From IMG/VR virus record IMGVR_UViG_3300019755_000002, positions 14,717 through 78,716 of that record: a stretch of 64,000 bases of DNA; one strand, written 5' to 3'. Numbering within the stretch: the stretch's first letter is position 1; each line of letters opens with the position of its first letter. Position numbers and translations under genes: made by a program. The notes under the pieces are model-generated. The model worked only from the letters and a program-made list of their open reading frames with translations, was not told where the DNA came from and searched no databases. This DNA comes from a virus. Of this stretch, positions 1,334 to 63,741 are shown piece by piece.

Positions 1334-1388
1334 ACTTGCTCTAGCTACACGCTAGGGCATTAATTAAACTAAAACTAGGATTGATGAT

Positions 1389-2156
1389 ATGACTATCAAA
1401 CACATGACCTTCATGGTCGCCCCCGTATTTAAAAACAACCTCGGCATTCACTTTACCAAAGCACCACTGCAAGGTGTTGATAATAACGCGTGGTATGAAC
1501 TTGGCCCCGAAGGTACGCCTTTACTTCCTAAAATTCAGTCGCTACTTATTGGTGCTAATCTTGCCGAGGAAATAGTAGACATTGAGCAAAGAAACTCAAC
1601 AGACTATATTGTTAGTTACAGACCGATGCCCGAAAATTTTCACTCCACCCTTACACCTAAAGGTTGGGAAATTGTTGAAAAGCCGCCTTTAACCGAGGAA
1701 CAACTACTTGAACCATTTATGGTTATGTCCGACGAAGATAAAAGTCTATTGCTTGAGAATACCGACCTCCTTAGCCTATTACTTCGAGACTACGACTCTG
1801 AAGGTTTTGCTAAATTACTGGTAAATCAAGGCTTAGAAAACGCTAAAAACGAATTCTTTGGCTATCCTGAAACCTTAGAAATGGCACTAAAACACACAAC
1901 CTTAAAGGCGGAGGAAATAGCCCCATTATTATGTGAGCATCTAAACATTGCCGAAATACTGTCTTCACCAGAGAAAGACCTTCAAGCGGAATTAGCTTCT
2001 TTAGGTTATGAATGGGTGAAAGAACAATTTGATATTTCAACAGAAGACTTGATCGAAGAGATTAAATCACGCTATCATAAGCATGACCTTGTTGCTAAAG
2101 ACTTTATTCTTAGCCTTGAACAAAAACAACGTACAGCGCTACTTATTAGTGCTTAA
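1389..2156 (+). CDS. hypothetical protein
   Basis: 255-aa ORF; ATG directly follows GGATTGATGAT (1378-1388). Confidence 0.75.
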   Translation: MTIKHMTFMVAPVFKNNLGIHFTKAPLQGVDNNAWYELGPEGTPLLPKIQSLLIGANLAEEIVDIEQRNSTDYIVSYRPMPENFHSTLTPKGWEIVEKPPLTEEQLLEPFMVMSDEDKSLLLENTDLLSLLLRDYDSEGFAKLLVNQGLENAKNEFFGYPETLEMALKHTTLKAEEIAPLLCEHLNIAEILSSPEKDLQAELASLGYEWVKEQFDISTEDLIEEIKSRYHKHDLVAKDFILSLEQKQRTALLISA

Positions 2157-2182
2157 TTAAACTAAAAACTGGATTGACGACT

Positions 2183-2302
2183 ATGAACCACTCCCCCCTA
2201 TTTTGGGCCTCTTGCCCTAAAAGTGTTAAAAGACCTAAAAGCGTTAAAAACGAAAACTCAGCACAAAAACGCACAGCACACCCTTTTCACCCACCCTAAC
2301 TA
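2183..2302 (+). CDS. possible short ORF (~38 aa)
   Basis: ATG follows GGATTGACGAC (2171-2181); below the ORF-track cutoff; end approximate. Confidence 0.3.
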
Positions 2303-2315
2303 ATGAGGTATTTTC

Positions 2316-2543
2316 ATGCTCAAAACCGTTAGATCCAATATAGCGTTAATTCAAAACATAGCTCAAAAAATGCTTACTTCAAAAGGAAAGTATGTCGTAG
2401 TAGACCGAAAGCGATACGACTATAAAGGCTTTTTATCACTTATTGGACAAACAAAAAATCAAGCCGATAAAAGTGGCTTAGAATTAAAAGGCTTAAATAT
2501 GTTATATGAAAAATATAAGACACAAATACTAGCCGAAGTATAA
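2316..2543 (+). CDS. hypothetical protein
   Basis: 75-aa ORF with GAGG RBS. Confidence 0.6.
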   Translation: MLKTVRSNIALIQNIAQKMLTSKGKYVVVDRKRYDYKGFLSLIGQTKNQADKSGLELKGLNMLYEKYKTQILAEV

Positions 2544-2593
2544 ACCTCTAAGGGCTGACTCAGCCCTTAGCAATTAAAAGATGGATTGACGAT

Positions 2594-5269: not shown

Positions 5270-6617
5270 GTTCTATTATGAAAAAGAGTATTTTAAATAA
5301 TCCTGAATATGACGAGCAAGTTATGCAACAAATAGCTAGCGAATCCGAAACGTTTAGGTATCTTCTTGAGGGGATGGTTAAAGACACCGACAGTGAACTC
5401 CCTACTAATGAAGCTTGGCTCGGGACGCTGTCCTTGGGTAAGAAAAAAGCGCATACACAAGTAAAGCTTGTTGTTACCCAAGAAACCAAAAATCTTATTG
5501 ATGAGAATTAAATTATGAGTGAATTTACATATACTTTTGGCGCTATATTAGGCCAGCAAAATGGTCGCCCCTTTTATCAAGCTACAGTGCCTTTTAGAAC
5601 GTTAGCTTCAATGCTGAAACTTGACGAGGATTTTGACGTCAATAAACGCTCTCAGCGCTTGGTTGATACTACCAGAGCCAAAAAAGTAGCTAAATATTTA
5701 CATAAGAATATAAATGGCTTTTTTGTAATTCCTCCGCTTGTCGGTTTTATTGAGGGGGATTTTGAATTTGAGTCTGTGCCGATTGATGGGTTTGGTAACG
5801 TTGGTCGAATGAAAGTTGATTTGGATGCTAGATTTATGTTGTTTGATGGCCAGCACAGAGCTTTTGGTATACGGGAGGCAATGGCGTTAGCCCCTGAACT
5901 TGGCCAGCAAAACGTGTCGATTATGTTCTTTGCGGGCATGAGCTTAAGTGAAAGACAACAAGCTTTCCACGACATTAATTTCACTCAAAAAACACCCGCC
6001 GCAGCACTTTGCATTGCTTACAATAGTCGTAGTGACTTTGACAAGATGGTTACAGACACATTCAGCAAATCCAGTATCAGAGGTATTATTGAATATGAAA
6101 AGAATACCGCTAGCGGCAAAAGCAATAAAATATATTCACTCAAAACATTAAAAGATTTTGCTACAAACTTTTGCGGTAAAGATATTCAAGAAAATACGCA
6201 ACAACTATTAGCTGAGTATATTAAGGGCTTATTTACAACAGTTAATATACCTGCTCATTTATCTAGAATTGAAGCTGATAGAAGGGAGTTATTAAGGCAC
6301 GGTTTTGTTTGCGCTAAGTATTACCGTGAAAACTATATATTACCTCATGCGGTAACACTGAAAGCATTAGGTTTGCTAGGTAGAGCTTTACTTAGCGAAC
6401 ACCCATACGATTGGCATCAAAAGCTAGAGGCTATTGGTAATATAAGCGTATTCGATAAACATGCTGAGCATTGGCTTGGCCGTTGCGTTAATGAACGTGA
6501 AAAAATGGTTAGTAACCAATTAGCCGTTCGTCTGACTTTTTACAAACTAAAAGAACTCTGCGGTTTAGCGCTAGCACCCGAAGAAAAAGTAGAAGAAGGT
6601 GTTTTCAGTACAAATTA
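5231..6617 (+). repeat. ~25-bp direct repeat pair (5231-5255 and 6592-6617) flanking the DndB module
   Basis: GAAGAAGGTGTTTCAGTACAAATTA versus GAAGAAGGTGTTTTCAGTACAAATTA. Confidence 0.85.
5278..5511 (+). CDS. hypothetical protein
   Basis: 77-aa ORF between the helicase and the DGQHR gene. Confidence 0.65.
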   Translation: MKKSILNNPEYDEQVMQQIASESETFRYLLEGMVKDTDSELPTNEAWLGTLSLGKKKAHTQVKLVVTQETKNLIDEN

Positions 6618-6618
6618 A
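5515..6618 (+). CDS. DndB-like DGQHR-domain protein
   Basis: 'RSQR', 'RAKKVAKY', 'FDGQHR', 'QQAFHDIN'. Confidence 0.85.
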   Translation: MSEFTYTFGAILGQQNGRPFYQATVPFRTLASMLKLDEDFDVNKRSQRLVDTTRAKKVAKYLHKNINGFFVIPPLVGFIEGDFEFESVPIDGFGNVGRMKVDLDARFMLFDGQHRAFGIREAMALAPELGQQNVSIMFFAGMSLSERQQAFHDINFTQKTPAAALCIAYNSRSDFDKMVTDTFSKSSIRGIIEYEKNTASGKSNKIYSLKTLKDFATNFCGKDIQENTQQLLAEYIKGLFTTVNIPAHLSRIEADRRELLRHGFVCAKYYRENYILPHAVTLKALGLLGRALLSEHPYDWHQKLEAIGNISVFDKHAEHWLGRCVNEREKMVSNQLAVRLTFYKLKELCGLALAPEEKVEEGVFSTN

Positions 6619-6667
6619 AATAACGAACTAAAAACCCACGACACCAATTACACAAAGGTAGGAATGA

Positions 6668-6839: not shown

Positions 6840-7202
6840 ATGTTAGATGCGAATGCGAGATACCTTCCTAAGGGGATTAAATTTTTTGTACGAGGTCATG
6901 TTAGTGAAGACAGTGAGCTTATTGGCTTAGGTGTTAAATCCCACCATTACTATCTGTGCAAAATGATGGATAACTCTAATGCGAATCCAAGATTTAGCAT
7001 AAAAGTTGACGGTAAAGTTCACGTAGTTAAATACAAATGCGATTACTCATTCCTAGTGTACCAAGGCACACCAAACGGCAGAGGCTTTATTCGTGATAAG
7101 GCTAAGAAAGCATGTGAACAGGTTGTTGGTGGTTTTAACAACACCTATTGGGAACGACATACTAAAACAAGAATAGAAACTTGGAGAAGAAAATGTTCTT
7201 AA
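6840..7202 (+). CDS. hypothetical protein
   Basis: Start moved to ATG 6840, after the TAGGA RBS. Confidence 0.6.
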   Translation: MLDANARYLPKGIKFFVRGHVSEDSELIGLGVKSHHYYLCKMMDNSNANPRFSIKVDGKVHVVKYKCDYSFLVYQGTPNGRGFIRDKAKKACEQVVGGFNNTYWERHTKTRIETWRRKCS

Positions 7203-8693: not shown

Positions 8694-8850
8694 ACTAACC
8701 AAGGTCAGGATTACAAGTCCTGACCTTGGGTGATAATTTACCCCTAAGCGACAACGTTTAGGGGTGTATTAACACCCTCACAATTTGGATTGACGATACT
8801 AACCAGATTGAGAGTTAAATCTTAATCAATTAATCGAAAAGGTATACCCC

Positions 8851-9945: not shown

Positions 9946-10045
9946 AAAACAGCGAAAAAAAAAACTAAAGTAAAAAAGAACTAAATTAGGTGGGTAAGTT
10001 TACCCACCTACTATTCAACTGAAAACAAAATTAGGATTGACGATC

Positions 10046-15440: not shown

Positions 15441-15494
15441 AGAGTAATATCAACACTTAAAAATTAAACGTTTATAAAAATTAGGATTGACGAT

Positions 15495-16079: not shown

Positions 16080-16111
16080 GAAACTAACTCAAAAATTTGG
16101 ATGGATTGACG

Positions 16112-19100
16112 GTGGCCGACATGATCCCACAAGTATCATTAAGTATAATTACTAAACCAAGCGGAATACTAACTAAAAAACTAAGTGTTCAACAAGGTCG
16201 AGTAATAAGTGACTCTAGTGAATGTAGAATTAGTTCCGCTGTAGCGAATAGAATAACGCTACCGTTTGACCAAGTTCCACAATTACTTAAAGAGTTGGGC
16301 AACAATCAATGTTGTGCGACGGGATGGGCGAACACCGACCACACCCAAGTTGAGTTAATGTCGCGAGACAAATTTGAGTCTAAGCATTACCAATTCCCCG
16401 TGCAAGAGTTACCGCACGGGGTTTATGCTACCAGAACACTAGACTCGTTTACTCAAAAAGGGCAAAGTCTAATCATGTTTGATTACGACGACGATGAGGC
16501 TTGTCCGTATAAAATTAACTGCCCCGAGCAATTTATAGAATTACTATCACAAGTAATCCCAGACTTTAACAAAACCACCTATATCCGAACATTTTCAACC
16601 TCGTCGGGTGTTTATGACCGCACAACAGGGGTTTGCCTAAAAGAAGCCGCAGGTTTTCATCTATGGATGGTTGTACCCGATGGTAGTGATATTCAACGAT
16701 TTGGTGAAGTGTTAGAAAAAAGACTCTGGTTAGCTGGTCTAGGCTATATCAAAGTTTCGACTAAGAATGCCAACCTAAATATCCGTACTGTAATTGATAC
16801 GGCGGTATTTAGTCCTGAAAGGCTGGTATTTGAAGCGGGGGCGGTTATTAGTGATGAAAGTATCGAACAACGGCTACCATCCCCTGAGTATAATGCCAAG
16901 CAATATAATTTACTTGATACCAAGAGACTACCTAACTTAAGTGATTTAGAGGAAAAGTCTTATCAAACGGCTATTTTAAATGCGAAACTAGCCGATCACG
17001 TTGTCAAAACAAAAAACGAAATTAAACAACGCATAGCCGACGATTTTGTTGTTAAAGCACAAATGGCGGGTAGAATAATTCCGCGTTCACAAGCAATGAG
17101 AATGGTAGAAAATTTAGAAAGGCATATTCTCCCACCATTTCATATTATTTATTTCGCCGACGGTTCACAAGCGACGGTAATGGATATTGTTGCTAACCCC
17201 ATGGCTTTCGATGGTCGTGAATGTTTAGACCCCATTCGAGAAGATAAGGGTCATGGACGCTCAAAAATCTTCGCTAATTTAGACCAAGCCGTACCTAAAC
17301 CACAAATACACTCTTTTGTTGAAGGTGGGCGTAACTTTGATTTAATGGCTTCTATGAAGTTATTACACGTAAAAACGGTTGACGAAGAATTTACCGCCTT
17401 GCGTGATTTAGTCACTACATACCAAAGTCAGGATAGTGAATACTTCAAAGCAATTGAACTTAAACCAGGTATTAATCTGATTAAAGGTGAAAAAGGCACG
17501 GGTAAAACCTTCACTATTGCAGAAACAATAAGAGCAACAGAATTAAGTGTTCTGGGGATTACCCCTCGAATCGGTTTAACTGAAACGGTTTCAGACGACT
17601 TTGGCTTATCTTGTTATAACGACGAAAAATTTAAAGAAAGCCACGTTCTAAGGTCACAAAAACGATTAGCTATATGTTATGACTCTATACATAAGATTGC
17701 AGGACAGTATTTTGATATCGTTGTCATAGATGAAATTATTCAAGTTATGCGACACGTTAAATCCAGTTCGGTTAAATTTAAATTTGTTTGTTTAAATGTT
17801 CTCAGGTCTTTAATCTTAAACGCTAGATACGTTGTTATGATGGATGCCGATATCAGCGCGGATTATCTTGGTTTACTTAGAGACCCAGATTTGGGCTGCT
17901 GTAAACAAAACGTAGACATAAATCTAATCCTTAATCATTACAAACCCGCTCAACGTCAGGGTAGAAAAATTTACAATTACATTGACCTTGAAGATAAAGC
18001 CGATGAAGAAGCTTGGGGAATAAATTTACTTGAGTACGTGAAAGATAAGGGTACCTTTATTGCCACAAATGCTAGAACACAGGCATACAATGTTGCCAAT
18101 GAAGTTCTCGAATCTTGGGGTTTAAATGTTACCCTAGAACAAGGACATTTTATTACTGAAGTTAATGGTCGTCGTGTTATAACCATAACCTCAGACAACT
18201 CGGGTTTGTCGGAAGTAGCGCAATTTGTAAGTAATATTAATAAAAATCTCAGGCCGACGGACGTTTTTATTTCTTCACCAAGCTTAGGTACAGGTGTCTC
18301 AGTTAATAAACGTGAAGGTAAGCCTGTATTTGAACGTGTTTATTGTCGCTTCACTAAACGAGCGGGTAACACCTCAGCCGATTGCTCTCAACATATTGCA
18401 CGAATCCGTGGTTGTACCGAGTTTCACAACATCATTATTGATACGTTGGAGTGGCAAGAAACTGACCCAGAATTAATCGTAGCGCAAGAAATTTATGGTC
18501 GAGTTAAAGCTGTGGATGGCTATGTTCGTAGTAATGATTTGAACTTTGACCCCTACATGAATAAATACGTTTTTGCGGATAATAATTGGGGACAGTGGTT
18601 TGGTTTAATGGTTAGTTTTGAAAACCTTGATCGTAATGAATTTGGCTTAAACTTCTTAACGCGATTAGAGCAAGAGGGGTATACCATTGAGACAGTTAAA
18701 TCGGAAATAGCCCCTGAAGCAAGGACTAAAAAGCATGAACAAACTAAGCGTGTAAAAACGAAACAGAAGGAGTTAGAAACACAACTAACAGTTGATTCCC
18801 CATTATTAACAGATGAAGAAAAAGCGGAGTTAGATGCAAAGTCTCAGTTAACAGTAGATGAAAAACGTCAAATGCTAAAACGTAGCACTGCCGATGCCTT
18901 TGGTGAATACAACCAAGACGGATTGGAAGGTTTACTACGCCTGAGTAAAGCAGCATTAAAGTATCGTCGTTCAGGTTTATATTTTGGTATGAATAGCGAA
19001 ACGTTGTTGTTAACCGATTTAAGTAATCGACTTGATCACGAAAAAATGCATATTGAAAAAACAGTACATTACCCCCGTTGGTCGCTAATGATATCCTTAG

Positions 19101-19594: not shown

Positions 19595-19664
19595 TAGTGG
19601 GCTAATAGCCCAAACGGACTAAAAACTGTTTGGGCTTCAACTCAAATACAGACAGATAGGATTG

Positions 19665-20153
19665 ATGATGCGTACTAAAATGACGCTCGGGGTTAGTCGT
19701 TCAAAAACAAACACGACGACAGAAACCAAGGCAATAAAACCAGAATTCTCCAAAGAAGATAAAGATGCTTATTACTGGCTAGGTCAGGTTATGGTTGAGT
19801 TGTATCGTCTCAAGTTTAGAATTAAATGGGATAAACCCCTTGCTAAGAACTTTTACAAAAAAGTACGTAAAGTTCTAAGCAAAGACTTTATTTCATCAAA
19901 GAATCTAAACGCCGCTATTAAACATCACGTTAAATCACCTAAATATTTATTGATGTTAAGACCCGGCGTCTTTAGACATGACCTAAAAGGGAAACCCACA
20001 GTGGCGGTCACTGAATTTGAGTCTAAGCATGCCTTAACAGAGTTATACGAGCATCATGGCGCTTTTATGCGCGACCGTAGAAAGCGGAGAAATAAACAAC
20101 CTATTACCTCCACAAGGAAAAATCATGTTACGAAACACAGGCAAACCCAGTGA
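19665..20153 (+). CDS. ProQ/FinO-domain RNA-binding protein
   Basis: 'KPLAKNF...SSKNLNAAIKHHVKSPKYL...GVFRHDLKGKP..AVTEFESKHA' matches the FinO-domain pattern KPL...YL...G..R.DL.G....V....HA. Confidence 0.75.
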   Translation: MMRTKMTLGVSRSKTNTTTETKAIKPEFSKEDKDAYYWLGQVMVELYRLKFRIKWDKPLAKNFYKKVRKVLSKDFISSKNLNAAIKHHVKSPKYLLMLRPGVFRHDLKGKPTVAVTEFESKHALTELYEHHGAFMRDRRKRRNKQPITSTRKNHVTKHRQTQ

Positions 20154-20556: not shown

Positions 20557-20624
20557 TTGGTTGGCTCCAAAGGGAGCCGATTTTATTCAGGTAGATACAA
20601 TTTGGATTGACGATAGGATCACAC

Positions 20625-26412: not shown

Positions 26413-26480
26413 ATGCAGACAAGGAACGACAACAACGTCCTTGTCCTACAAATTAACTGATTGACGATATTGAGGTAACG

Positions 26481-26819: not shown

Positions 26820-26834
26820 CTTTGGATTGACGAT

Positions 26835-27086
26835 ATGAACAACCAGAACACTCTTGGGGTAAACACCAACATGTCCCCACTTCAACAAAGCAAACATCAA
26901 AAATATTGGAGTACAAAACAAGTATGTGAACGATTTGGATATATATCGTCACGCACACTCTCTAGATGGGTCGAGTCCAGAGGATTCCCGCCGTCGGTTA
27001 CACCTGAAGGAGAGGCGAATTTATACTCCATTGAAGCCATCCTCTTGTGGGAAGAAAACTATTTCACCCAACCAGATATAGCCTAA
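26835..27086 (+). CDS. AlpA/excisionase-type HTH protein
   Basis: 'STKQVCERFGYISSRTLSRWVESRGFPP...YSIEAILLWE'. Confidence 0.75.
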   Translation: MNNQNTLGVNTNMSPLQQSKHQKYWSTKQVCERFGYISSRTLSRWVESRGFPPSVTPEGEANLYSIEAILLWEENYFTQPDIA

Positions 27087-28340: not shown

Positions 28341-28353
28341 TAGGATTGACGAT

Positions 28354-36433: not shown

Positions 36434-37471
36434 CTAAGCTTGTTGTTTAACAAAATTAATAAGTACGTAAGGGGAAAAACTACCACCTTGTTGTCTTCCA
36501 ACATAATCAATACCAACATTAGCGGCATAATGAGGGTTAGGGCTAGAGGCACCAGCACCCAACAAAGATGGTCTACTATCAATTGATGCAAGGTAACCTT
36601 CGGTTTTATCTTCACCATCATTAGATGCACAAGCACCTCCACCAGCACCATGATAGTAGGCGGCACTACCTGTTTGGGTATATCCTGCTCCATCCCCTTG
36701 TATTTTACCGTTTGAAGTTACAGCCCTAGTTGGTACATTTGCAACAGATCCATTCATACCATCAGTACCTGCTATACAAGTAATACCATCATCTACTTCT
36801 TGACCATTCCACAGAACTTTGCCACCGATGCCGCCAACCGCAGGATATGAACCGTGGTCTGCACCTTGACCACCAGCTTCCACAGTAAGTGCACCTAGAA
36901 CTAAAGAGTAACCCTTCGTTAAAATTAGTTCCTGTCCAGGGGTAACGGCTATTTCAAAATCTATAACAGCACCACCTCCACCTCCACCTCCACCAGATTG
37001 TTTGCTGTTAGAAGTACCAGCATAACTAGTACCACTACGACCACCAGCAGCTTGGTATGTAACCTTAATCAAGTAACAATAATCAGGAATGGTTATCGTT
37101 TGACTTGATCCGTATTGCTGAATGTTATCTTCATGCACAGCACGTATACGGCTAGGCATAGTGATAAACCGTAATAGCTGCAAATTGTCTGCACTCAGTA
37201 ACGATGAGTTGTCTACATATACTTGTATATGAGTATCTAAACCATCAAAAGTAGATATACCCATATCATAACCAGCATGTTTAGCGTTCAACAACTCTCT
37301 TAATGTTGCATAACTAACGTTACTGTCATCAAAGCCTTCTGCTTGTGCAGCGGTTATCTCTCCTACTGTTGGAGAAGGTAAAGCTATTACTCGATCAATT
37401 TCTGTTTTAGCACTAGCTGCTAAAGGGGCTAGTTGTCCTGCTGTCAATGTCATTAGATTATGAATCCCCAA
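36434..37471 (-). CDS. glycine-rich tail fibre protein
   Basis: 'SGGGGGGGGA', 'VTPGQ'. Confidence 0.7.
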   Translation of the reverse strand: MGIHNLMTLTAGQLAPLAASAKTEIDRVIALPSPTVGEITAAQAEGFDDSNVSYATLRELLNAKHAGYDMGISTFDGLDTHIQVYVDNSSLLSADNLQLLRFITMPSRIRAVHEDNIQQYGSSQTITIPDYCYLIKVTYQAAGGRSGTSYAGTSNSKQSGGGGGGGGAVIDFEIAVTPGQELILTKGYSLVLGALTVEAGGQGADHGSYPAVGGIGGKVLWNGQEVDDGITCIAGTDGMNGSVANVPTRAVTSNGKIQGDGAGYTQTGSAAYYHGAGGGACASNDGEDKTEGYLASIDSRPSLLGAGASSPNPHYAANVGIDYVGRQQGGSFSPYVLINFVKQQA

Positions 37472-43478: not shown

Positions 43479-43518
43479 ATCGTCAATCATTCCAAATTTT
43501 AGTTACTTAGTTGTTTAA

Positions 43519-44987: not shown

Positions 44988-45469
44988 AAGCGCACCTGAT
45001 TAAATTCAGGCTGTGTGAAACGTCTAGGCGGCAACATAAAATTATTACCATCCGACAGGTAGTTTAATTGGCAACTAATCATTTGACGATTAACTTCAAC
45101 AATACGACTAACGTAAAATTGATTCGTTAAGCTTTCATTACTGTCAAGATTCTCTGGATGGACTAAATACTGGGTTACTCTCGCATTATCCAAGTAACCT
45201 TTTTGGATGTAATAACTGTAAACACCTTCTGGGTTCGGCAATATTAATCGTGGACGTGTTTTTTCACCCCCGCTTTTATCACCTAAACCACTTAGATTAA
45301 AAGCGACTTTACTCCAAGTAAGACCATTCCATTCTAGGGTTTGTGACAAGCAAAAGTGCTGAACAACGGGGCCGTCGTCAGTTTCAATGTATATTTTTAG
45401 AAGTTCATAGGGCGCAGAGCTATTCAAGGAATGCTTCTCTTGCTCCATTCCCGAAGGCAAAACTTTCAT
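44984..45469 (-). CDS. minor tail protein L-like
   Basis: Synteny M-L-K-I-J; 'RPRL..PN', 'LPPRRF'. Confidence 0.7.
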   Translation of the reverse strand: MKVLPSGMEQEKHSLNSSAPYELLKIYIETDDGPVVQHFCLSQTLEWNGLTWSKVAFNLSGLGDKSGGEKTRPRLILPNPEGVYSYYIQKGYLDNARVTQYLVHPENLDSNESLTNQFYVSRIVEVNRQMISCQLNYLSDGNNFMLPPRRFTQPEFNQVRL

Positions 45470-45512
45470 ATCGTCAATCCAGATTGTCGTTGTTCTTAAA
45501 TTTGACTATAGC

Positions 45513-45551
45513 AAAAAAAATAAAACCTCGGAACATAAAAATGCTCCGAGG
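45513..45551 (-). terminator. intrinsic terminator
   Basis: CCTCGGAGCAT-TTTT-ATGTTCCGAGG followed by TTTTATTTTTTTT. Confidence 0.85.
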
Positions 45552-45590
45552 CCAACTATTGGATTGACGATATGTGCCTTACGACGCATA
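45513..45590 (-). ncRNA. predicted small RNA antisense to the shared RBS motif of phage genes
   Basis: 5' GUAA-tetraloop hairpin, seed CAUAUCGUCAAUCCAA (45574-45559), intrinsic terminator, candidate promoter upstream. Confidence 0.7.
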
Positions 45591-45594
45591 CCAC

Positions 45595-45624
45595 AAGATA
45601 ACATTACCCGTAAACAAGCGACAA
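45595..45624 (-). promoter_or_regulatory. candidate sigma70 promoter of the sRNA
   Basis: TTGTCG-18 nt-TATCTT with an extended TG. Confidence 0.5.
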
Positions 45625-45645
45625 GTCCAGACATTTTAAGATAAT

Positions 45646-46032
45646 TTATCTCGGCTGTTCTTTAAATTCCAAAGTAAACCCTTGACTAACACCATTACCC
45701 TCCTTCAATAACTTTGGTGCTTCAAATGGTGCTGAAAACATCACCACAAGCACACCATGTAAGTAGTGTTCGTACTCAAAAGCTTTGTGTGTTTCATGTT
45801 CTTGGTAAAACCTCTCCAACGCCAAAAGATTTATCTCTGGATTTATTATCTCACTCACCAAGCCATCCTCATCAAGGAAGTATTTCATGGCGTTAAAACT
45901 CAACTTAAAAGTTCTCGCTGGGGGCGAATTGGGCTTAATCGTATGAGTCCAACCACCACCAAGGTCAACTTGGCTGTTTCTCTTTGGGTATGAATGTTGA
46001 ACTTCATGGTACGGGAAATTAAACACCTCCAC
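45646..46032 (-). CDS. minor tail protein M-like / distal tail protein
   Basis: Follows the tape measure gene; 'LERFYQEHETHKAFEY', 'FKEQP'. Confidence 0.7.
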   Translation of the reverse strand: MEVFNFPYHEVQHSYPKRNSQVDLGGGWTHTIKPNSPPARTFKLSFNAMKYFLDEDGLVSEIINPEINLLALERFYQEHETHKAFEYEHYLHGVLVVMFSAPFEAPKLLKEGNGVSQGFTLEFKEQPR

Positions 46033-51749: not shown

Positions 51750-51767
51750 AGCGCCAATCCTCTATTT

Positions 51768-52133
51768 TTAACCGAAAATTTCAGCACAAGCTAATTGTGC
51801 CTCTTGCCAAGTTTTCGTTGGTTTAACTTCTGGGGCTTCTTCTTCACCCCCACCTAAAGCACGACTAATCGCAATACTTAGGTTTTCAAAATGTTGCGAC
51901 AGTTCGGCCATATTATGACTAACTGAAATTCGTAATTTAAAGCGTATGTCCGCAAAGGTATAACACCAGAAAGTTTTATGTAATTGACTTGGAAATATGT
52001 CAAAAGCCCAACAAACTTGTTCTTCAAATTCAAGGTCTTCATACCAACCTTTAAAAACGGTTAATGTTGACTTAGCGCCTGATTTACTTTCCGCTGTGTT
52101 TTCAGTTGATTTTTCAGGCGCATGATAAAAAAA
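51768..52133 (-). CDS. -1 frameshift extension of the tail assembly chaperone (gpGT-like)
   Basis: The -1 frame is open from the T7 slippery run (52133-52127) to TAA at 51770-51768. Confidence 0.75.
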   Translation of the reverse strand, partial: FFYHAPEKSTENTAESKSGAKSTLTVFKGWYEDLEFEEQVCWAFDIFPSQLHKTFWCYTFADIRFKLRISVSHNMAELSQHFENLSIAISRALGGGEEEAPEVKPTKTWQEAQLACAEIFG

Positions 52134-52426
52134 TCCTCTATATGCTCCTTAACCCAAGCAAAAATAGGCTCCACTTCGCTAATAGCCAGAGTATGAAGTG
52201 GAAATTTTTCAACTATTTCACCTTCTTCTCCACGTTGTGCTAGACACATTTCAAGGACAAAGTTTCGCAGATCAGGTTCACTGTTCAATTCTATCAGTTG
52301 ATCAACCGTATTGAATGGGATGATTAATGTGTTGAGAAGGGCAAAGCTCATAAATAGTTCTTTTTGTTTGCCATTTACCATAAGCCGTAACCTATCTGTA
52401 GGTTTTTTAGCTGCATCTTGAGCCAT
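52061..52426 (-). CDS. tail assembly chaperone (gpG-like)
   Basis: Between the tail tube and tape measure genes; 'EDFF' slippery site; start follows the motif at 52428-52438. Confidence 0.75.
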   Translation of the reverse strand: MAQDAAKKPTDRLRLMVNGKQKELFMSFALLNTLIIPFNTVDQLIELNSEPDLRNFVLEMCLAQRGEEGEIVEKFPLHTLAISEVEPIFAWVKEHIEDFFIMRLKNQLKTQRKVNQALSQH

Positions 52427-52480
52427 TATCGTCAATCCAAATTTAGTATTAGCCCTATCATAGGCTAAATATAAAAAACA

Positions 52481-52508
52481 AAAAAGCCCCGAGATATAGG
52501 GGCTTTTA
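52481..52508. terminator. intrinsic terminator, probably bidirectional
   Basis: AAAAGCCCC-GAGATATA-GGGGCTTTT flanked by A/T tracts. Confidence 0.75.
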
Positions 52509-52551
52509 TCTATAAAATCTAACGCTTAAAACTTTAAAATAAAAGCCACAC

Positions 52552-53367
52552 TTAAGTACGTTTAGACGCCGTAGCATCTTTAAGTAATTTGCCGGCCATA
52601 CCCTTATAATCCGCATAGAAGGGTTCACCAGGTAGTACTTTTAAATTCTTCCACTCAAAAGCCATGTTGCCATAATTTTCCGAAGAGAATGCCGCAGCAA
52701 AACCAGAAGACACCTTAATACGTGGGTTCAGTAGTGTTATCCACGTACCGTCTGCTAGCTGACCCGTCACTTTAGCTGCTAACTCGGTCTGTTCTTCTGT
52801 CGTACCTAGCTCTAAAACACTAACACGCTGAATAACCGACCCCGCAGGGATAATAACCGCACCAATATCTACCTGAACAGTAAGAGCACCCGTGGACGCA
52901 ACGCCTGACGTATCTGTCGCTTTAGCAAGAATAATATTATCATCATCTGGAAATCGAATTGAAATCATATCTCCATCAGCTAACGGTTGAGGTGTACTAC
53001 CTTCTGTCACTACAAGATCATGTGTCTTGTCACTGTTATTCGTACCAATCGCGTTAACAATGAAAGGGTCACCCGTTACTTCACTAATATCAAATCCAGA
53101 CAAACCGAGGGCATAGGCCATGTTCTTGGCGGTATATTCATACATTTCCATCGAAGCACGCGTCTCAGAACCCGTAGTCATAGTAAAGACAAGATCGTTA
53201 GTAACACCTGCTGTTAAATCCGTAGAACTTCGGTCGTTATTCACGTTAAAATTCTTTACTAATCCAATCGAATGCTCCGAGGGGTTTAGTTCCATTAGCT
53301 TTTCTCGTTCACCAATCATTACCGTGGCACTAGAGAGCATAAAATTTTTACTTTTAGCTTCACTCAT
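52552..53367 (-). CDS. major tail (tube) protein
   Basis: Synteny, size and beta-rich sequence. Confidence 0.7.
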   Translation of the reverse strand: MSEAKSKNFMLSSATVMIGEREKLMELNPSEHSIGLVKNFNVNNDRSSTDLTAGVTNDLVFTMTTGSETRASMEMYEYTAKNMAYALGLSGFDISEVTGDPFIVNAIGTNNSDKTHDLVVTEGSTPQPLADGDMISIRFPDDDNIILAKATDTSGVASTGALTVQVDIGAVIIPAGSVIQRVSVLELGTTEEQTELAAKVTGQLADGTWITLLNPRIKVSSGFAAAFSSENYGNMAFEWKNLKVLPGEPFYADYKGMAGKLLKDATASKRT

Positions 53368-53471
53368 ATCATCAATCCTTATTCAAATTTTAGGGTTTAC
53401 CTATTAAGTATTCTAGACATCAGTGATGCCGAGATTTAAAGTATAAATTTACATCTATTCAAAAGCAAAGA

Positions 53472-53918
53472 CTATATTTCAGGCTGGACTCCAACCTGAA
53501 ATAATATCGCTTGAAACGTTTTAGTTTGGGCGTTTATTTTTGGTGGTACTCGTCGTGGACCTACAAACACCATTTCACCAGCTTCTACTTCCTTTACCAC
53601 GTCATAAAGCTTAATAGCGTTCTCAGCTTGCATTTTATCAACAAGAAAGCTTAAAGCCTCAATCAATAGCATATTGTTGGTGTCACTTTGTGTAGCAATA
53701 ACAACTTGTCCCGACGCAATGGCTACGGGGTTATTCGCATCCGAGTACGAGAAATCTTCCAAACCAATAAGGTGCCCAGAAGGTAAGTCATTTTCGTCAC
53801 TCTCAGCATCCAGATTAATGGGGGTGAATGTCTTCCCCGTCTCTAAATGAAGTGCTTCGGCCATATCCGAGATAAAACGTAGTAATGACGCCTGAGTATG
53901 TTTAAGTAGTCTTTCCAT
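53472..53918 (-). CDS. putative tail terminator
   Basis: Synteny only. Confidence 0.5.
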   Translation of the reverse strand: MERLLKHTQASLLRFISDMAEALHLETGKTFTPINLDAESDENDLPSGHLIGLEDFSYSDANNPVAIASGQVVIATQSDTNNMLLIEALSFLVDKMQAENAIKLYDVVKEVEAGEMVFVGPRRVPPKINAQTKTFQAILFQVGVQPEI

Positions 53919-54882
53919 TGTTTATCCTTGAAATTACATCATCTAATTCAAATTCAATCGACTCCAATACCTCACCGAACACAGGGTCAATTAACAATCT
54001 TCCGTCCTTCGCCATAGCCTTTAAATTTTGTTCCAGACTATTAACCTTTCTTCTACCTTGCGGGTTTGATAATTTTAAAAAGCTTGTATGTTCAATTAAA
54101 AAATTTAAGAAGCCTTGCTCACTTTGCTCTAAATTTCTAAAGAATTCCCCTTTAATATTAAAGGTTACATGCCCTTTTGCTATGGCTTGAGCTAAAGAAA
54201 TAACACGCCCATCGGGTCGTTGTATCTTGTTTTTATTTTCCGTTCTATAAAACCCTTTGGCTAAACTAGAATGTTTGTGTGTTCTCCCCATTCTAAGAAA
54301 TTCTTTTGAAACAATATCTTGCCAACGAGCATTAATTAACGTCCCGCGTTTACCAATTTTTTTAGCTCTACCACCTACTACTTTACCCAAGGAAGCGTTA
54401 CTTGCTCCTTGCACCTGATTTGAGGTTCCTAAGCCACCTAATCCGTCAAATAAAACGTTACCCGCCGTAACATCTTTTAAGCTGTCAATTTTACCATATA
54501 AGGATTGAGAAAATGGGTAGCGCTCTTTTCCCTTTCGGTGACCTCGGGTATAACGCTTACCATGCTGCTTTGACAACCCATAACGACCTTTAAAATACTC
54601 TGCGCCATTAGCCCCAAAAAATTGTACTTTATCTTCAAAATAAGATTGCTTCAGTTTTGGAACCCGATATGACCCCACCCAAGGATTAGTCGTTTTCATT
54701 TCACTATTAGTATCACTCATTGTTATCGCTAATAACGAAAAAAACGTGTCTAGCTCTCTAACAATTATTTGTTGTAATTGTGAGCTAATACTCTTAGCAA
54801 CAGTTTCTTGGGTGAATTCTAATAATTGACTAACTTTCCCCATAACCGACGAAAGTAAACTCCCTTTAACTCCAGAAGACAC
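53902..54882 (-). CDS. putative neck / tail completion protein
   Basis: Basic protein in the head-tail joining region. Confidence 0.45.
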   Translation of the reverse strand: MSSGVKGSLLSSVMGKVSQLLEFTQETVAKSISSQLQQIIVRELDTFFSLLAITMSDTNSEMKTTNPWVGSYRVPKLKQSYFEDKVQFFGANGAEYFKGRYGLSKQHGKRYTRGHRKGKERYPFSQSLYGKIDSLKDVTAGNVLFDGLGGLGTSNQVQGASNASLGKVVGGRAKKIGKRGTLINARWQDIVSKEFLRMGRTHKHSSLAKGFYRTENKNKIQRPDGRVISLAQAIAKGHVTFNIKGEFFRNLEQSEQGFLNFLIEHTSFLKLSNPQGRRKVNSLEQNLKAMAKDGRLLIDPVFGEVLESIEFELDDVISRINNGKTT

Positions 54883-55367
54883 TAGTAAACCTCGGCACGA
54901 TAAACACCACCCAACAGGGTTACGGCTCTAACTCTACGGTTATTAATCTTATCCGCTGTAGTTACACTCTTTCCGAGATAAAAGATGCTTTTTTCAAACG
55001 ACAAGTTATCATCTTCACCGTGACTAATAACATCTTGAACACAAGGTAAAACCATTTCTTGATATCGGGTTCTATTTGAGGGTAGACCCGTAATCATGTT
55101 CTTAACCGTTAAGGTGGTAGAATGCTTAACACGACAATTAATAGATAAACCTAGAAATACTCGATGCCCCTTAGCATAATGATGGTGTGCTAAAAGATAC
55201 TCAGGCTCGCCCATAAAGGTTAATATTTCCGAGGGTTTTACCTTATATTCTAGTGGTATGTGTATTAGACTTCTTACAGGGGTAAGGGTTCTAAAATTAT
55301 CTTCTGGTTTGGTGACTAAGACTTTAACAAAGCGATTTCCAATAAGATATTCTTGGTACTTAATCAT
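54882..55367 (-). CDS. putative head closure protein
   Basis: Synteny only. Confidence 0.45.
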   Translation of the reverse strand: MIKYQEYLIGNRFVKVLVTKPEDNFRTLTPVRSLIHIPLEYKVKPSEILTFMGEPEYLLAHHHYAKGHRVFLGLSINCRVKHSTTLTVKNMITGLPSNRTRYQEMVLPCVQDVISHGEDDNLSFEKSIFYLGKSVTTADKINNRRVRAVTLLGGVYRAEVY

Positions 55368-57864: not shown

Positions 57865-57926
57865 GATATCATCAATCCAATTTATTAATTTTTAAGTTCA
57901 AAAACAGTGGTTAGTAACCACGTTTG

Positions 57927-59547: not shown

Positions 59548-60996
59548 TTATTTCGTCGTGTTTGATTTTACTTGTTTATCCTTAGCTGAGGACACGCTAC
59601 GACCTACAGGGTCATCATTTGGTGAAACACTTTCAGCATCTACAGCTAGTGCCGTGTTGTTCATAAACTGCGTTCCAGATAACTCTGGTGAGGTATCAGG
59701 TCTTAATCTACCATACATGGCAATGTGGTACTCGTCATCCGAAATAATTCCCTCACTTAAATCTTGTCTTAATCTGCTGGCTTTTAAATTTTTCTGGGCT
59801 TCCATTTCTAACTCAGAACGCAAATCAACCTCAGGGTAAACAAACTCAACCCTACTTTGTGACCCCTGAAACCTTATTGCTTGAGTCAACATATTACTAA
59901 TAATCTCACCAATAGGTTTGTTAATACTCCCAGCCATTTTGCCAAAGAGTTGAGCTTCAACTGTTCCCGTGTTCACACCACTTTCACCACGACCTAAAAC
60001 CGTTGCCATAGTCTTGAGCCCAGCTTGATTTTGAGCATTAAGCGTATCAATCACTTGCTTAATATCGACACCCATTGCGGGATTTTTATCGTTAAGAATA
60101 CCCATTTTTACCGAATCATAATGAACTAGTGGTTGGTCTGCTCTCATCGATTGTAGTTGCCCAACCACTTCATTTCGCCTTGCGCGCAGGTATTTTCTAA
60201 ATTCATTTGGGTCGGTTTTAACTGCAACAGGAGCATTTTTAGCAATAACTTCCTCAAGCACTTCCGCCGTCATTCTTGGATATCCCGTTATTTGCATAAT
60301 CCGATACAAATCATTAATAACTTGTTGACGTGCCGCCATAGTATTAATACCCGCTAAAAAGGGACTATGCCCATAGGCTTCCATAGGCGATTTTCTATAC
60401 CACTGAATAAACAACGTTGGTATATCCATCTTTTTATCTTCACCGTTTTGCGTTTGCCATGGCGTAATTACCCCCGACTCCTTTTCTTGAAACGTGAACG
60501 AGGCAATATCAGGAACCACAATTCTATCTAAAAGCAAGGCGTCATTATAAATAGCTTCACCAGCGATACCACCTCGAGCTAAAAGCATATAGCGCATATC
60601 CTCAGCAATAGCACGTAGGGTTCTTTTTTGGCTAAATCCTGTTGAGTAGTCGCTTCTCTGTGTTAGCATCTCAATAATCTGATTGACAAGTTTACCTCCT
60701 TCACGGTCAACATTCCCGTCTATATCTTTTACTAAAATAATCGGGGTAACATCCGCCGTGGTTAGATATGAACTCAAAGCCGCCGAGGCATCAGGGTCAG
60801 ATTTAATTAACGTTAAAATAATTTCTCTACTGTTTTGTTCTTGTCTAGTACTTAAAATATCTGTTAAATGTTCTTTGAAGTTTGGTAAGGGTAGAACCTC
60901 TGTCTTATTTGAAACGTCAAAGGTGCCTGTATGCGCCTGTGCTTTTTTCTTACCAACTTTTGGTAGAACAATTGCTAATTTTTGTAGAATACTCAT
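59548..60996 (-). CDS. portal protein
   Basis: 482 aa, between the terminase and the protease. Confidence 0.75.
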   Translation of the reverse strand: MSILQKLAIVLPKVGKKKAQAHTGTFDVSNKTEVLPLPNFKEHLTDILSTRQEQNSREIILTLIKSDPDASAALSSYLTTADVTPIILVKDIDGNVDREGGKLVNQIIEMLTQRSDYSTGFSQKRTLRAIAEDMRYMLLARGGIAGEAIYNDALLLDRIVVPDIASFTFQEKESGVITPWQTQNGEDKKMDIPTLFIQWYRKSPMEAYGHSPFLAGINTMAARQQVINDLYRIMQITGYPRMTAEVLEEVIAKNAPVAVKTDPNEFRKYLRARRNEVVGQLQSMRADQPLVHYDSVKMGILNDKNPAMGVDIKQVIDTLNAQNQAGLKTMATVLGRGESGVNTGTVEAQLFGKMAGSINKPIGEIISNMLTQAIRFQGSQSRVEFVYPEVDLRSELEMEAQKNLKASRLRQDLSEGIISDDEYHIAMYGRLRPDTSPELSGTQFMNNTALAVDAESVSPNDDPVGRSVSSAKDKQVKSNTTK

Positions 60997-61011
60997 TTGT
61001 AGTCCTTAAAT

Positions 61012-62790
61012 TTACCAAGTGGTAATTATTTTATCTTTCGGATTTCGGTAACCACCAAAACCAATTAAATCTTGGCAATCATTCATATTACTAAAGTCCT
61101 CACCAAATAGACCTACTTCAAAAGGTTGGTCTTCTACTTTTTGATGCCCCGCTTTTGCCTCACAAACCCCGCGTTGCAACATCCCTGAAACTAAAAAAGC
61201 TTTAGCATGAAAGTAATGATCTGTGCCGTTTAGCTTAATCCACTTTGATTGCCCTTCTTCAGGGCTTTCTCTAACCATATCCATCATATGCGTGATAACT
61301 ATCGCTTTCTCCTGACCATATCCGCGCAATGACCACGAACAATTTCTAATACCATTAGCAACATAGTCAAGCATCATTGTTCGGTTTACCTTCGCAGCAA
61401 CCACAAGACCTAAACTATCTTTATCCTCCACAATTTCTTTACCCGAAGAATATTCTATGGGCATGATCACGCCCTTAGATAAATCTCGAACAGCATTCGC
61501 CGTTGGTGTATATGGGTATCGGTCGATACCGCCTGAAACGATATTACATTTATCTAAGAAATGTTTTACCGTTGACATTAAGGCTTCACTTCCGCAAGTT
61601 CCGTAATAAAAAATATCCTGTTCTTCAACAGTTGGTCCCGTCCCCATCACAATATTACAGGTTTGACCGACATCAATACCTATATGAACAGGTGTTCCTA
61701 CAGGTGGAAACGTTATCGTCTCCCCCTTCATAACATTCTCAATCTGGGGTTTACTTAAACGCTTATTACCTGCCGTAGCCGTTTCACCTAAAACCGTGTT
61801 TTGCCAACCCGCTAAATTATCTCGTCGCTTATACTTGAACAGCTCAGTGAGAATATATTTAGGTGACAAGGTATGAGTGGAGAATGGTCTGACTTGGTAA
61901 CCTCTAGCATGGGTTCTGTTCGGGTAGGTTGCTACCCATTCACGGTTGGCTGTATCTGCTAAGTTTAAGTGTCTATGGCATTTACGGCATTTTACGGCTG
62001 TATTTTCAAGGTCAATTAAACCTTCATCCACCATATTTTCTTCTAGTTCATTCAAGTTTTCAACAAGGTCTAAACAACCCCCAGGTATATGAACATTTTG
62101 TTTTGTAAATAATGGTATCTGCCAATGATTACACGCCCGACACTTTATCACGTACTCGTTTTGGTCACTGGCTGCATAGTCCTTATGAATACCAAAGCCA
62201 TCCCATTTAGGCGTTGAGAAACTCTGTTTAATACGTATGTCTGACCCTTGAAGACGTGAACCAAATAACGCCAACATATCTGGAGGCGTTAAGTCAACTT
62301 CATCGTGAAAGATAAAGTCCGCGTTGATACTCGTTGCATCACCCTCAGTTGACCCAGTAACATACATAAAATTAGACCCAATAGGGATTAAATCCATTGA
62401 GTACTTGGTTACATCACGAAAAGCTTTATCAAACTCTATGATAGGAATAAGACGACCTTTTGAAATACGCTTAAACATCTTTTCGTTGGGCATAGTGTAA
62501 ATGAGGGACTTGTTTTCATAGCGCCTCATTATCGTCAACGCCTTTCGTATCTGTATTTCCGTGAGCCCAACCTGAGAAGGTTTGATACACGACAGATTTT
62601 CGTGCATGTCATTAGCAATTTGCTCTTGAAAAGGGTAACGAGTAAAACAGAAATCTTTTTTATTTAAGGATGTGTTTTTACACATCCACTGGCCGTTGGT
62701 CATATCCTCACTATCTTTATTAAAACGTGAGGAAATATCCTTATAGAAACTTTGAAGGTGGATATTTTTTTCCAAAGAAGAGGTCGTCAC
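61012..62790 (-). CDS. terL: terminase large subunit (GpA-like)
   Basis: 'YPFQ', 'KPSQVGLTE', 'DEVD', 'FSTP', CxxC pairs, 'GIDVG', 'DHYFHA'. Confidence 0.9.
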   Translation of the reverse strand: MTTSSLEKNIHLQSFYKDISSRFNKDSEDMTNGQWMCKNTSLNKKDFCFTRYPFQEQIANDMHENLSCIKPSQVGLTEIQIRKALTIMRRYENKSLIYTMPNEKMFKRISKGRLIPIIEFDKAFRDVTKYSMDLIPIGSNFMYVTGSTEGDATSINADFIFHDEVDLTPPDMLALFGSRLQGSDIRIKQSFSTPKWDGFGIHKDYAASDQNEYVIKCRACNHWQIPLFTKQNVHIPGGCLDLVENLNELEENMVDEGLIDLENTAVKCRKCHRHLNLADTANREWVATYPNRTHARGYQVRPFSTHTLSPKYILTELFKYKRRDNLAGWQNTVLGETATAGNKRLSKPQIENVMKGETITFPPVGTPVHIGIDVGQTCNIVMGTGPTVEEQDIFYYGTCGSEALMSTVKHFLDKCNIVSGGIDRYPYTPTANAVRDLSKGVIMPIEYSSGKEIVEDKDSLGLVVAAKVNRTMMLDYVANGIRNCSWSLRGYGQEKAIVITHMMDMVRESPEEGQSKWIKLNGTDHYFHAKAFLVSGMLQRGVCEAKAGHQKVEDQPFEVGLFGEDFSNMNDCQDLIGFGGYRNPKDKIITTW

Positions 62791-63119
62791 TTCGTTCTCT
62801 CTTCAAGCTTAACAGCAAGTTTCTGTACGGACTTATTGGTTTCAGAAATAGCCGTTAAAATTTTCTCGTCAAAAATTCTGCGGTCTTCCCGTCTCTCATT
62901 CAGCACCTTTTCTAAACTACTAAACTTAGAATCAAAATTAATCCTAAGACCATCTATGGCATCTTTCATTTCCGCTTTTGAAGCAAAATCCGAGGTCATA
63001 TCAAATTGTCGATTATCAAGTTTCCACAACCAAGTACTTAACCCACCAACAGAAAGTGTTGCTAGAGCCACAACTACAGGAATTAAGTTTCCCAACCATT
63101 GTTGATTAGTTGCTGTCAT
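62787..63119 (-). CDS. membrane-anchored coiled-coil protein (holin-like)
   Basis: One TM plus a coiled coil, next to the M15 peptidase. Confidence 0.5.
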   Translation of the reverse strand: MTATNQQWLGNLIPVVVALATLSVGGLSTWLWKLDNRQFDMTSDFASKAEMKDAIDGLRINFDSKFSSLEKVLNERREDRRIFDEKILTAISETNKSVQKLAVKLEERTK

Positions 63120-63643
63120 TTTAAGAGTCTCCCGTTCTTACGAAAGACTTCACGAAAAGCACCCGTATCTTTATTCCAAAAGACTAGAGAATTGTCGTAG
63201 ATGCAAACAAAGGGTAAACCACAAAGATTAGGACACGCGGCATGAAGCCAAGTAACGCCTTTGCCTTCTTCAATGAATGTTATGTAAGGGAATTGTTCTG
63301 GGTGTTCTTCTATGTAATCTCGGACTTCCTGAGCCTTAGCCCTAAGAAATAGGCCATCAATAGCTCGTCCCCAAGAATGGTCACTTGTTTTAGAAAAGTG
63401 ATTATCACCAGCAAGACGTAAACCACTAAACTCACGATTTCCACCCCATGACCAGTTGTTAATTGTCATGGGGCCAAATTGGTATCTTAGCTGATCTGCC
63501 GTAATTAATATTCGGGTATCAATATAACGTAAAACACGGTTACCATATCTTTCAAAGGCTGAACGACTAGCAAATTCCTGAGCCTTAAAGTGCTCGGGTT
63601 TATATGTGCAAGCCGATAGCTGTGAAGCGTCTAAGTCAGTCAC
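63116..63643 (-). CDS. peptidase M15-type cell-wall hydrolase
   Basis: 'SGLR', 'SDHSWGRAID', 'WLH'. Confidence 0.75.
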   Translation of the reverse strand: MTDLDASQLSACTYKPEHFKAQEFASRSAFERYGNRVLRYIDTRILITADQLRYQFGPMTINNWSWGGNREFSGLRLAGDNHFSKTSDHSWGRAIDGLFLRAKAQEVRDYIEEHPEQFPYITFIEEGKGVTWLHAACPNLCGLPFVCIYDNSLVFWNKDTGAFREVFRKNGRLLK

Positions 63644-63741
63644 GTATCGTCAATCCTATAAATTTTTAAGTTGATAGCCGAAGCTATGCTCACTAGTATA
63701 AACTTATTTGTGTGAAAAATTAAACAACTTGGATTGACGTT

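Follow-up and report, generated by a model that had tools for sequence, protein, structure and literature searches.

Known small RNAs of phages include P4 CI, P22 sar and lambda OOP, each of which has a single phage operon as its target. The c4 antisense RNA of P1/P7, which is responsible for immunity at the ant operon, likewise pairs with short boxes around the ribosome-binding site of its own mRNA, and small differences between its seed and target define heteroimmunity between relatives (PMC12197685); other known phage small RNAs act on host genes. FinO-family proteins, of which both plasmid- and phage-borne members are known, bind the intrinsic-terminator hairpins and 3′ tails of antisense and trans-acting small RNAs (sRNAs) and promote pairing (PMC9977716), and the known systems have one to few targets. 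In FinO/FinP-traJ of F-like plasmids and in FopA/Inc-repZ, a mobile element encodes the FinO-family protein, which binds the RNA terminator stem-loop, as well as an antisense RNA lying over the ribosome-binding site of a key gene (PMC9977716). The RocC/RocR pair of Legionella pneumophila consists of a FinO/ProQ-domain protein and one dedicated sRNA, encoded beside it, with a single-stranded seed and a terminator hairpin, and four mRNAs are repressed through a shared complementary box at or near the ribosome-binding site, where translational repression is expected (PMC9977716). Here, we describe a 64,000-nucleotide (nt) stretch of viral DNA (the window), bases 14717-78716 of the 78,716-bp IMG/VR virus record IMGVR_UViG_3300019755_000002, in which the motif GGATTGAYGAT adjoins many start codons, and which also carries a candidate sRNA with a complementary seed and a FinO/ProQ-domain gene. 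In its overall working, the proposed system would be most like RocC/RocR, FinO/FinP and P1/P7 c4.

The differences from these systems are nevertheless substantial. RocC/RocR serves a competence regulon with four targets, whereas the candidate described here is phage-encoded, would be aimed at the phage's own genes with about 25 targets, and is predicted from sequence; moreover, the box includes the Shine-Dalgarno sequence and the start codon, and related phages differ from one another in both seed and boxes, which have diversified in concert. FinP and Inc are cis-encoded antisense RNAs with one target, unlike the present candidate, which would be trans-encoded with many. The c4 RNA controls a single operon and no FinO-type chaperone is mentioned for it (PMC12197685), whereas the putative targets here span early, middle and late genes.

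Fifteen exact copies of GGATTGAYGAT are present in the window against 0.09 expected from shuffled sequence, and none of 100 shuffles reached 15, so that the enrichment check proposed in the earlier note on this DNA came out clearly in favour of the motif. The whole genome holds 21 copies and none of a reversed control pattern. Together with start-adjacent variants at one or two mismatches (2171, 16103, 26458, 43479, 51750, 59487, 63731 and a weak one at 37457), this gives about 22 sites in the window, in good agreement with the roughly 21 sense-oriented, mostly start-adjacent copies on both strands that the earlier note had counted. About a quarter of the phage genes begin with a shared ribosome-binding sequence of 11-14 bases. 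Plus-strand copies are confined to the plus-strand arm (1-28950) and minus-strand copies to the minus-strand arm, with the sole exception of 45561(+), which is antisense to the late operon and had not been singled out before. At most sites the gap from motif to start codon is -2 to +3 nt; the copies previously listed as lying away from a start do so, that at 8787 by 54 nt, that at 26458 (given as 26459) by 12 nt and that at 20604 with an AGGA between it and the ATG at 20625. The reported C>T variants (1378, 19659, 53368, 57868) and A>G variants (16103, 51750) read as claimed, the A>G at 16103 also making a GTG start codon, and the corrected ATG starts at 10046, 43478, 52426 and 59485, which replace upstream TTG/ATG codons of a mechanical open reading frame (ORF) list, are plausible from the sequence.

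The nearest named relative is Pseudoalteromonas phage KB12-38, with a capsid identity of 68%. From a wider set of relatives gathered by capsid alignment, we compared 12 motif-bearing low-GC marine siphophages (the phage studied, KB12-38, G001-G008, G026 and the fragment G027), with 17 high-GC relatives as contrast. The motif GGA lies at -11 to -9. Because non-motif genes of the same genome carry AGGA/GGAG at -12 to -8, and the capsid gene of the high-GC relatives has a plain TAAGGAGA where the motif GGA would sit, the GGA is the Shine-Dalgarno sequence of the motif, and the conserved spacer box TTGAYG(AT) is its unusual part. KB12-38 has the form GGATTGAYRAT. Among the motif-bearing relatives the invariant element is a TTGACG box directly before ATG (2 nt before it in the phage studied and KB12-38), preceded by GGA, GGAA, GGAAA or GGAGA. 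TTGACGATG occurs 26-30 times per genome in G003-G006 and G008 and 7-12 times in G002, G007 and G027, variant boxes taking their place in G001 and G026, whereas the 17 high-GC relatives have 0-5 copies each and no repeated start-adjacent heptamer. The clade displays four motif specificities: GGATTGACGATATG, GGAAATTGACGATG, ATCGACG and GGATTAACAAAC.

The register of the box with the start codon bears on whether the motif could be a promoter or transcription-start element, with TTGACG as the -35, an upstream AAAATT/ACAATT as the -10 and very short leaders. TTGACG/TTGACA does fit the -35 consensus, its last two positions being the most variable, which is also true of genuine -35 elements; the GGA is often preceded, at 2 nt, by a hexamer resembling a -10; and a few copies precede a separate full Shine-Dalgarno sequence or a long leader (8787, 20604). 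We nevertheless regard this explanation as very improbable. The box as a -35 element was rejected since no conserved -10 lies 16-18 nt 3′ of it, where the sequence is the beginning of a coding region and differs at every site, and since the box is in register with the start codon and not with the upstream hexamer. AAAATT as the -10 of near-leaderless mRNAs is unlikely as well: it is frequent here but absent at many sites in relatives, where a hairpin directly abuts GGAAA. Finally, PHROGs and Pfam searches of the larger ORFs, and of part of the small ones, revealed neither a phage RNA polymerase nor a sigma factor.

The single antisense copy at 45561(+) coincides with the seed of the candidate sRNA, which would be read from the minus strand. 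Between 45634 and 45500 this strand presents, in order, TGGACT-N17-TAATGT, about 27 nt, CATATCGTCAATCC, 7 nt, a 13-pair hairpin and a U-rich tail. The unit sits between two tail genes, within the tail operon, and is kept at the corresponding late-arm place in KB12-38, G001-G008 and G027; each genome has exactly one copy that runs antisense to the genes around it and, on the late-sense strand, lies 6-10 nt 5′ of an intrinsic terminator. A covariance model built from 11 sequences recovered a twelfth RNA, in G026, whose seed CAUCGUCGAUUU fits the ATCGACG motif of that genome, and found no match in the 17 motif-less genomes. On the opposite strand of the unit, G002, G003, G004, G007, G008 and G027 read GGAA(A)TTGACGATAAT with no start codon, and the plus-strand copy (45572-45601) heads an ORF of only 9 codons in the window (MCLTTHTTR), 10 codons in KB12-38 (MITRTHIAPK) and 3 codons in G005. 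Since six genomes have no start codon and the ORFs elsewhere are this short, the antisense copy is not a protein start, and the 9-codon ORF is probably not a gene.

Several features of the unit would fit a transcribed RNA. Across the 12 loci, 8 have a sigma70-type promoter matching at least 9 of 12 positions 24-36 nt 5′ of the seed (for example TTGACA-17-TAGTAT and TTGACG-16-TAATAT in relatives), as against 2.5% of random 70-nt windows, and of the 9 consensus pairs of the terminator, 6 show compensatory changes when 11 genomes are compared. A two-stem plan of 5′ stem, linker and terminator is common to the seven RNAs that were folded, that of the phage studied and six others, with z-scores of -2.9 to -6.6; in the predicted folds the anti-motif is largely unpaired, the 3′ half of the seed being unpaired. 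Rfam gave no match at gathering score in the window and only chance-level microRNA matches at 45450-45700, and a search for transfer RNAs found none. In G001 (L236:12303-12387, minus strand), the 5′ arm of the sRNA, GAUUAGCAAGC, is similar to the target motif and, in prediction, forms pairs with the seed; such a mimic could gate access to the seed.

The position of the unit also invites the reading that it works solely in cis, as a leader or attenuator of the tail gene downstream, with the anti-motif pairing with the motif of that next gene 80-110 nt 3′ and the genome-wide motif being unrelated. The next gene does carry the motif, 50-110 nt from the seed, in the phage studied, KB12-38, G001, G006 and G008. 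We find this account quite improbable, as a strong terminator separates the two partners and as it offers no reason for about 25 other identical boxes, nor for seeds that track the genome-wide consensus, including an 18-nt match in G001.

Complementarity alone is trivial for an inverted copy of a motif, and non-trivial signals were therefore sought. Variation in the targets is seen only opposite wobble-capable bases of the seed. At box position 5 the seed has G in all genomes and the targets have C or U in every genome; at position 6 the KB12-38 seed has U and its targets A or G, whereas genomes with a seed C show A at 3 of 171 sites. The targets of G002 and G007 include ATCGACG as well as ATTGACG, and their seed has a G at that position (CGUCGAU), as had been predicted before the locus was inspected, and genomes with a seed A there have C at 0 of 157 target sites. 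In G001, where the motif is GGATTAACAAAC and the seed GUUUGUUAAUCC, two C-to-U changes in the seed are matched by G-to-A in the targets, with residual A/G polymorphism, and the match extends over 18 nt. When sites were picked by Hamming distance alone in eight non-redundant genomes, wobble-keeping transitions were found at 120 of 1462 positions (opposite seed G/U) as compared with 32 of 1417 for pair-breaking ones (opposite seed A/C; odds ratio 3.9, p = 3e-13), orthologous sites being not fully independent; transversions were equal (51 vs 43, p = 0.53). The effect is present separately in the box part and in the Shine-Dalgarno part. Within the genome studied, duplexes of the seed region at or below -21 kcal/mol form in prediction at 24 sites, as against 0-7 for shuffled seeds.

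This pattern of variation also bears on the suggestion that the motif is read by a phage protein, be it a translational regulator that binds RNA, as T4 RegA does, or a protein for which the motif is a DNA operator. The motif is short, oriented and conserved, and the phage encodes helix-turn-helix (HTH) proteins (26835-27086) in addition to the RNA-binding FinO-domain protein. Against this, the variable positions shift between genomes in step with the opposing seed base, with alleles coexisting only where they are compatible with G:U; the motif sequence has no evident dyad symmetry; and FinO domains recognise terminator structures, not single-stranded boxes (PMC9977716). We consider recognition by a protein improbable.

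The FinO/ProQ-domain gene of the phage (Table 1) encodes a candidate chaperone for the sRNA, and its homologues are present in 8 of 8 near-complete motif-bearing genomes as compared with 0 of 17 motif-less relatives. The proposal of the earlier note that the motif is recognised RNA to RNA, through an antisense AUCGUCAAUCC RNA, has accordingly gained support from the wobble bias of the clade, an encoded candidate RNA of exactly that sequence, its terminator, its 11 homologues and the co-occurring FinO/ProQ gene.

An altogether different view is that the motif is only a shared, efficient ribosome-binding cassette (hairpin, A/U-rich tract, GGA, box, AUG), read by the host ribosome and, as with the mobile regulatory cassettes known from T4-type phages, spread or made uniform among gene starts by recombination, and that the antisense copy is a by-product, for example a relic beside a terminator, with no function in trans. 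It would account for the placement of GGA as a Shine-Dalgarno sequence, for the spacing between box and start, which varies by 0-3 nt as in translation signals, for the repeated hairpin that each phage has 5′ of many copies, and for a complementarity that is trivial in an inverted copy. It leaves unexplained why 12 diverged genomes should all retain exactly one inverted copy in the corresponding position, where the other strand has a promoter, a 5′ stem and a terminator and where the copy lacks an ORF or even a start codon, and it explains neither the wobble-specific tolerance nor the co-occurring FinO gene. The box, furthermore, has no convincing complementarity to the 16S ribosomal RNA tail (textbook 3′ end, not that of the host); pairing of the box with this tail or with 16S 1195-1200 (CGUCAA) was rejected, as it gave at best 3-4 extra pairs or a chance-expected 6-mer in the textbook sequence. 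On balance, we judge the pure cassette unlikely.

We propose instead that the motif is a standardised translation-initiation region that doubles as the target box of one phage-encoded, trans-acting sRNA, and that its uniformity is kept by the need to match that one RNA. The sRNA would be transcribed from the minus strand at about 45594-45513, and its partly unpaired linker CAUAUCGUCAAUCC would pair with the Shine-Dalgarno sequence, box and AUG over 11-14 bp, the predicted duplexes having about -19 to -28 kcal/mol. By keeping the ribosome from binding, such pairing would repress translation of the first cistron in about 25 transcription/translation units of the phage. The FinO/ProQ-domain protein, whose own gene carries the motif at its start, probably binds the terminator and 3′ tail of the RNA, stabilises it and aids pairing, as FinO does for FinP and RocC for RocR. 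In a phage that bears an integrase, the likely role would be a post-transcriptional threshold or a layer of immunity, in which leaky or incoming lytic transcripts are silenced and the RNA is titrated out once lytic transcription is high. Because neither the integrase gene nor a weak CI-like repressor candidate outside the window carries the motif, and because a promoter-terminator unit is embedded in the late operon, the arrangement suggests that the sRNA is expressed from the prophage. We put the probability that the candidate RNA exists and regulates translation through the motif at roughly 0.6.

A number of observations weigh against this proposal. Part of the seed is predicted to be paired inside the 5′ stem, and the promoter of the phage studied is among the weak ones (7/12), its hexamers at 45601-45629 not being picked up by the promoter-prediction scan. 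The substitution asymmetry in favour of wobble, which the earlier note had described for this DNA, stands across the eight genomes of the clade but is not significant in the present genome alone (6/110 vs 6/176), and the surplus of C>T and A>G may in part stem from mutation that is asymmetric between the strands. Complementarity, and co-variation of seed and motif, are expected of any copy of the motif on the opposite strand, and the two lineage-specific cases in which the seed appears to have changed first each have a chance of about 0.6 of an accidental fit. The association of motif, RNA and FinO gene across the clade may reflect a single event of gain or loss. As to function, late structural genes would be repressed too, including neighbours in the unit's own operon, so that the regulatory logic is not obvious, and the weak CI-like repressor candidate means that RNA-based immunity is not required.

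Taken further, and at somewhat short of even odds, in this temperate marine siphophage clade the entire lytic programme may be under the control of one master sRNA, assisted by FinO/ProQ and encoded by a moron-like unit in the tail operon. It would read a uniform box, from Shine-Dalgarno sequence to AUG, on about 25-35 genes, and would provide a threshold filter or immunity at the RNA level, with seed and boxes co-evolving via G:U intermediates into specificities that decide which relatives silence one another. If true, ribosome-binding sites standardised for one RNA in a quarter of the genes would constitute a new regulatory design, with a viral programme under translational control by one guide RNA. 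The clade offers a natural series of co-evolved seed and target variants, and KB12-38 with its Pseudoalteromonas host is a cultured system in which the model is testable. It also provides a concrete hypothesis for other unexplained start-associated motifs in phage genomes.

One such motif is the start-associated sequence (SAS) of cluster K mycobacteriophages, which the earlier note had put forward as a loose analogue. In position the likeness holds, as the SAS is a short, sense-oriented motif with a Shine-Dalgarno-like core just 5′ of many starts and often near inverted repeats; it differs in its consensus, GGGATAGGAGCCC, in its host and in lying mostly outside structural genes (PMC12699233). 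Within two mismatches the motif described here does not match this consensus, GGATTGAYGAT being found in Pseudoalteromonas-type marine siphophages. A consistent anti-SAS partner was rejected, since of five cluster K phages checked Anaya, ZoeJ and Kratio have one antisense near-copy each and Pixie and Unicorn none. In Mycobacterium phage Anaya (L257:1071-1083, record 59870-59882), there are 16 sense copies, and the antisense near-copy (GGCCTCCTATCCC on the plus strand) lies in a 385-nt non-coding gap after a terminator.

The record ends carry direct terminal repeats of 123 bp. According to PHROGs and Pfam matches of the larger ORFs, the rightward arm (1 to about 28950) holds replication, recombination and DNA-modification genes, with DNA polymerase A, primase-helicase, SbcCD, DndB and methyltransferases among the products, and the leftward arm (63656 to 28952) encodes endolysin-like, terminase, portal, capsid, tail, tape measure and tail tip proteins and the integrase. 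Remoter relatives have Xylophilus, Caulobacter, Achromobacter and Acinetobacter as hosts. An exact 14-mer scan of IMG/VR returned scattered single matches only, and no Pseudoalteromonas prophage turned up in a scan of genome contigs. The coordinates of the features are collected in Table 1.

Table 1. Elements of the candidate sRNA locus, the FinO/ProQ-domain gene and the motif copies, in window coordinates (aa, amino acids).
Feature	Position	Strand	Remarks
Candidate sRNA, ~82 nt	45513..45594	-	5′ stem-loop, anti-motif linker, terminator stem-loop, U tail; 5′ end deduced from promoter-like hexamers; fold z-score -6.6
Seed CAUAUCGUCAAUCC	45561..45574	-	Exact 14-nt complement of GGAUUGACGAUAUG (Shine-Dalgarno + box + AUG)
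Intrinsic terminator hairpin	45524..45553	-	13 pairs; U-rich tail to 45513
Promoter-like TGGACT-N17-TAATGT	45601..45629	-	Weak (7/12 matches); aligned with KB12-38 TTGACT-N17-TACTAT
FinO/ProQ-domain protein, 161 aa	19668..20153	+	Candidate sRNA chaperone; Pfam PF04352, E = 1.3e-10, 41.7 bits vs cutoff 27
Motif GGATTGATGAT	1378..1388	+	Then ATG 1389 (255-aa protein)
Variant GGATTGACGAC	2171..2181	+	Then tATG 2183 (small ORF); ATTAAACTAAA box at 2156-2166
Motif	2583..2593	+	Then ATG 2594 (233 aa); hairpin upstream
Motif without adjoining start	8787..8797	+	54 nt 5′ of ATG 8851, after hairpin; arrangement kept in KB12-38
Motif	10034..10044	+	Then cATG 10046 (5′-3′ exonuclease-like)
Motif	15484..15494	+	Then ATG 15495 (nucleotide pyrophosphohydrolase-like)
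Variant GGATTGACGGT	16103..16113	+	Final two bases open GTG start 16112 (primase-helicase)
Motif GGATTGATGAT	19659..19669	+	Overlaps ATG 19668 of FinO/ProQ-domain gene
Motif	20604..20614	+	Then separate AGGA Shine-Dalgarno, ATG 20625 (SbcD-like)
Variant TGATTGACGAT	26458..26468	+	12 nt before ATG 26481 (excisionase-like)
Motif	26824..26834	+	Then ATG 26835 (83-aa HTH protein)
Motif	28343..28353	+	Then ATG 28354 (DNA methyltransferase)
Variant GGATTGACGTT	63731..63741	+	Then ATG 63742 (first gene of rightward arm)
Motif	63646..63656	-	Then acGTG 63643 (endolysin-like, first late-arm gene)
Variant GGATTGACGAA	59487..59497	-	Then tATG 59485 (388 aa)
Motif GGATTGATGAT	57868..57878	-	Then atcATG 57864 (major capsid protein)
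Motif GGATTGATGAT	53368..53378	-	Then ATG 53367 (271 aa)
Motif	52428..52438	-	Then aATG 52426
Variant GGATTGGCGCT	51750..51760	-	Then ATG 51749 (tape measure protein)
Motif	45470..45480	-	Then ATG 45469 (tail/baseplate protein); just 3′ of candidate sRNA terminator
Variant TGATTGACGAT	43479..43489	-	Then ATG 43478 (1596-aa tail protein)
Weak variant GGATTCATAAT	37457..37467	-	Then ctaATG 37453; membership doubtful

The hairpin found 5′ of many motif copies is specific to each phage, its 5′ arm being rich in G and its 3′ arm rich in C; examples are GGGTAAGTTTACCC in the phage studied (window 9992-10005; genome 4227-4241 and 13941-13954), GGGGTAACGTTACCCC, of which KB12-38 has about 9-10 copies, and GGGGCATGTGCCCC in G005. 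Most of these hairpins have no U tract, and they may be RNA stabilisers, processing sites or weak terminators. A second conserved box, (TT)AATTAAACTAAAAYT, lies 4-8 nt 5′ of the start motif at window 1363-1373 and 2156-2166 and in six further copies at genome 1796-13968, left of the window; it is confined to genes at the far left (early region) and to the plus strand, is present in KB12-38 too, and may be an early-class promoter or regulator site. No complementarity between the ATTAAACTAAA box of the early copies and the sRNA was obvious by eye, and this box is probably a separate early-class signal.

The DndB-family gene of the phage studied lies at window 5515-6618, with neighbours, and PAPS-reductase-like genes are additionally annotated in KB12-38 (50675-55293), both phages having several DNA methyltransferases; together, these genes suggest a DNA-modification module. 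Finally, a complete copy of the motif at genome 6779-6789 (7937 bases to the left of where the window starts), whose similarity to the sRNA complement is extended (aactattGGATTGACGAT), is followed by no start codon and lies 90 nt 5′ of a gene-starting copy at 6869, where it may serve as a high-affinity site, a sponge or an attenuator in an early leader.

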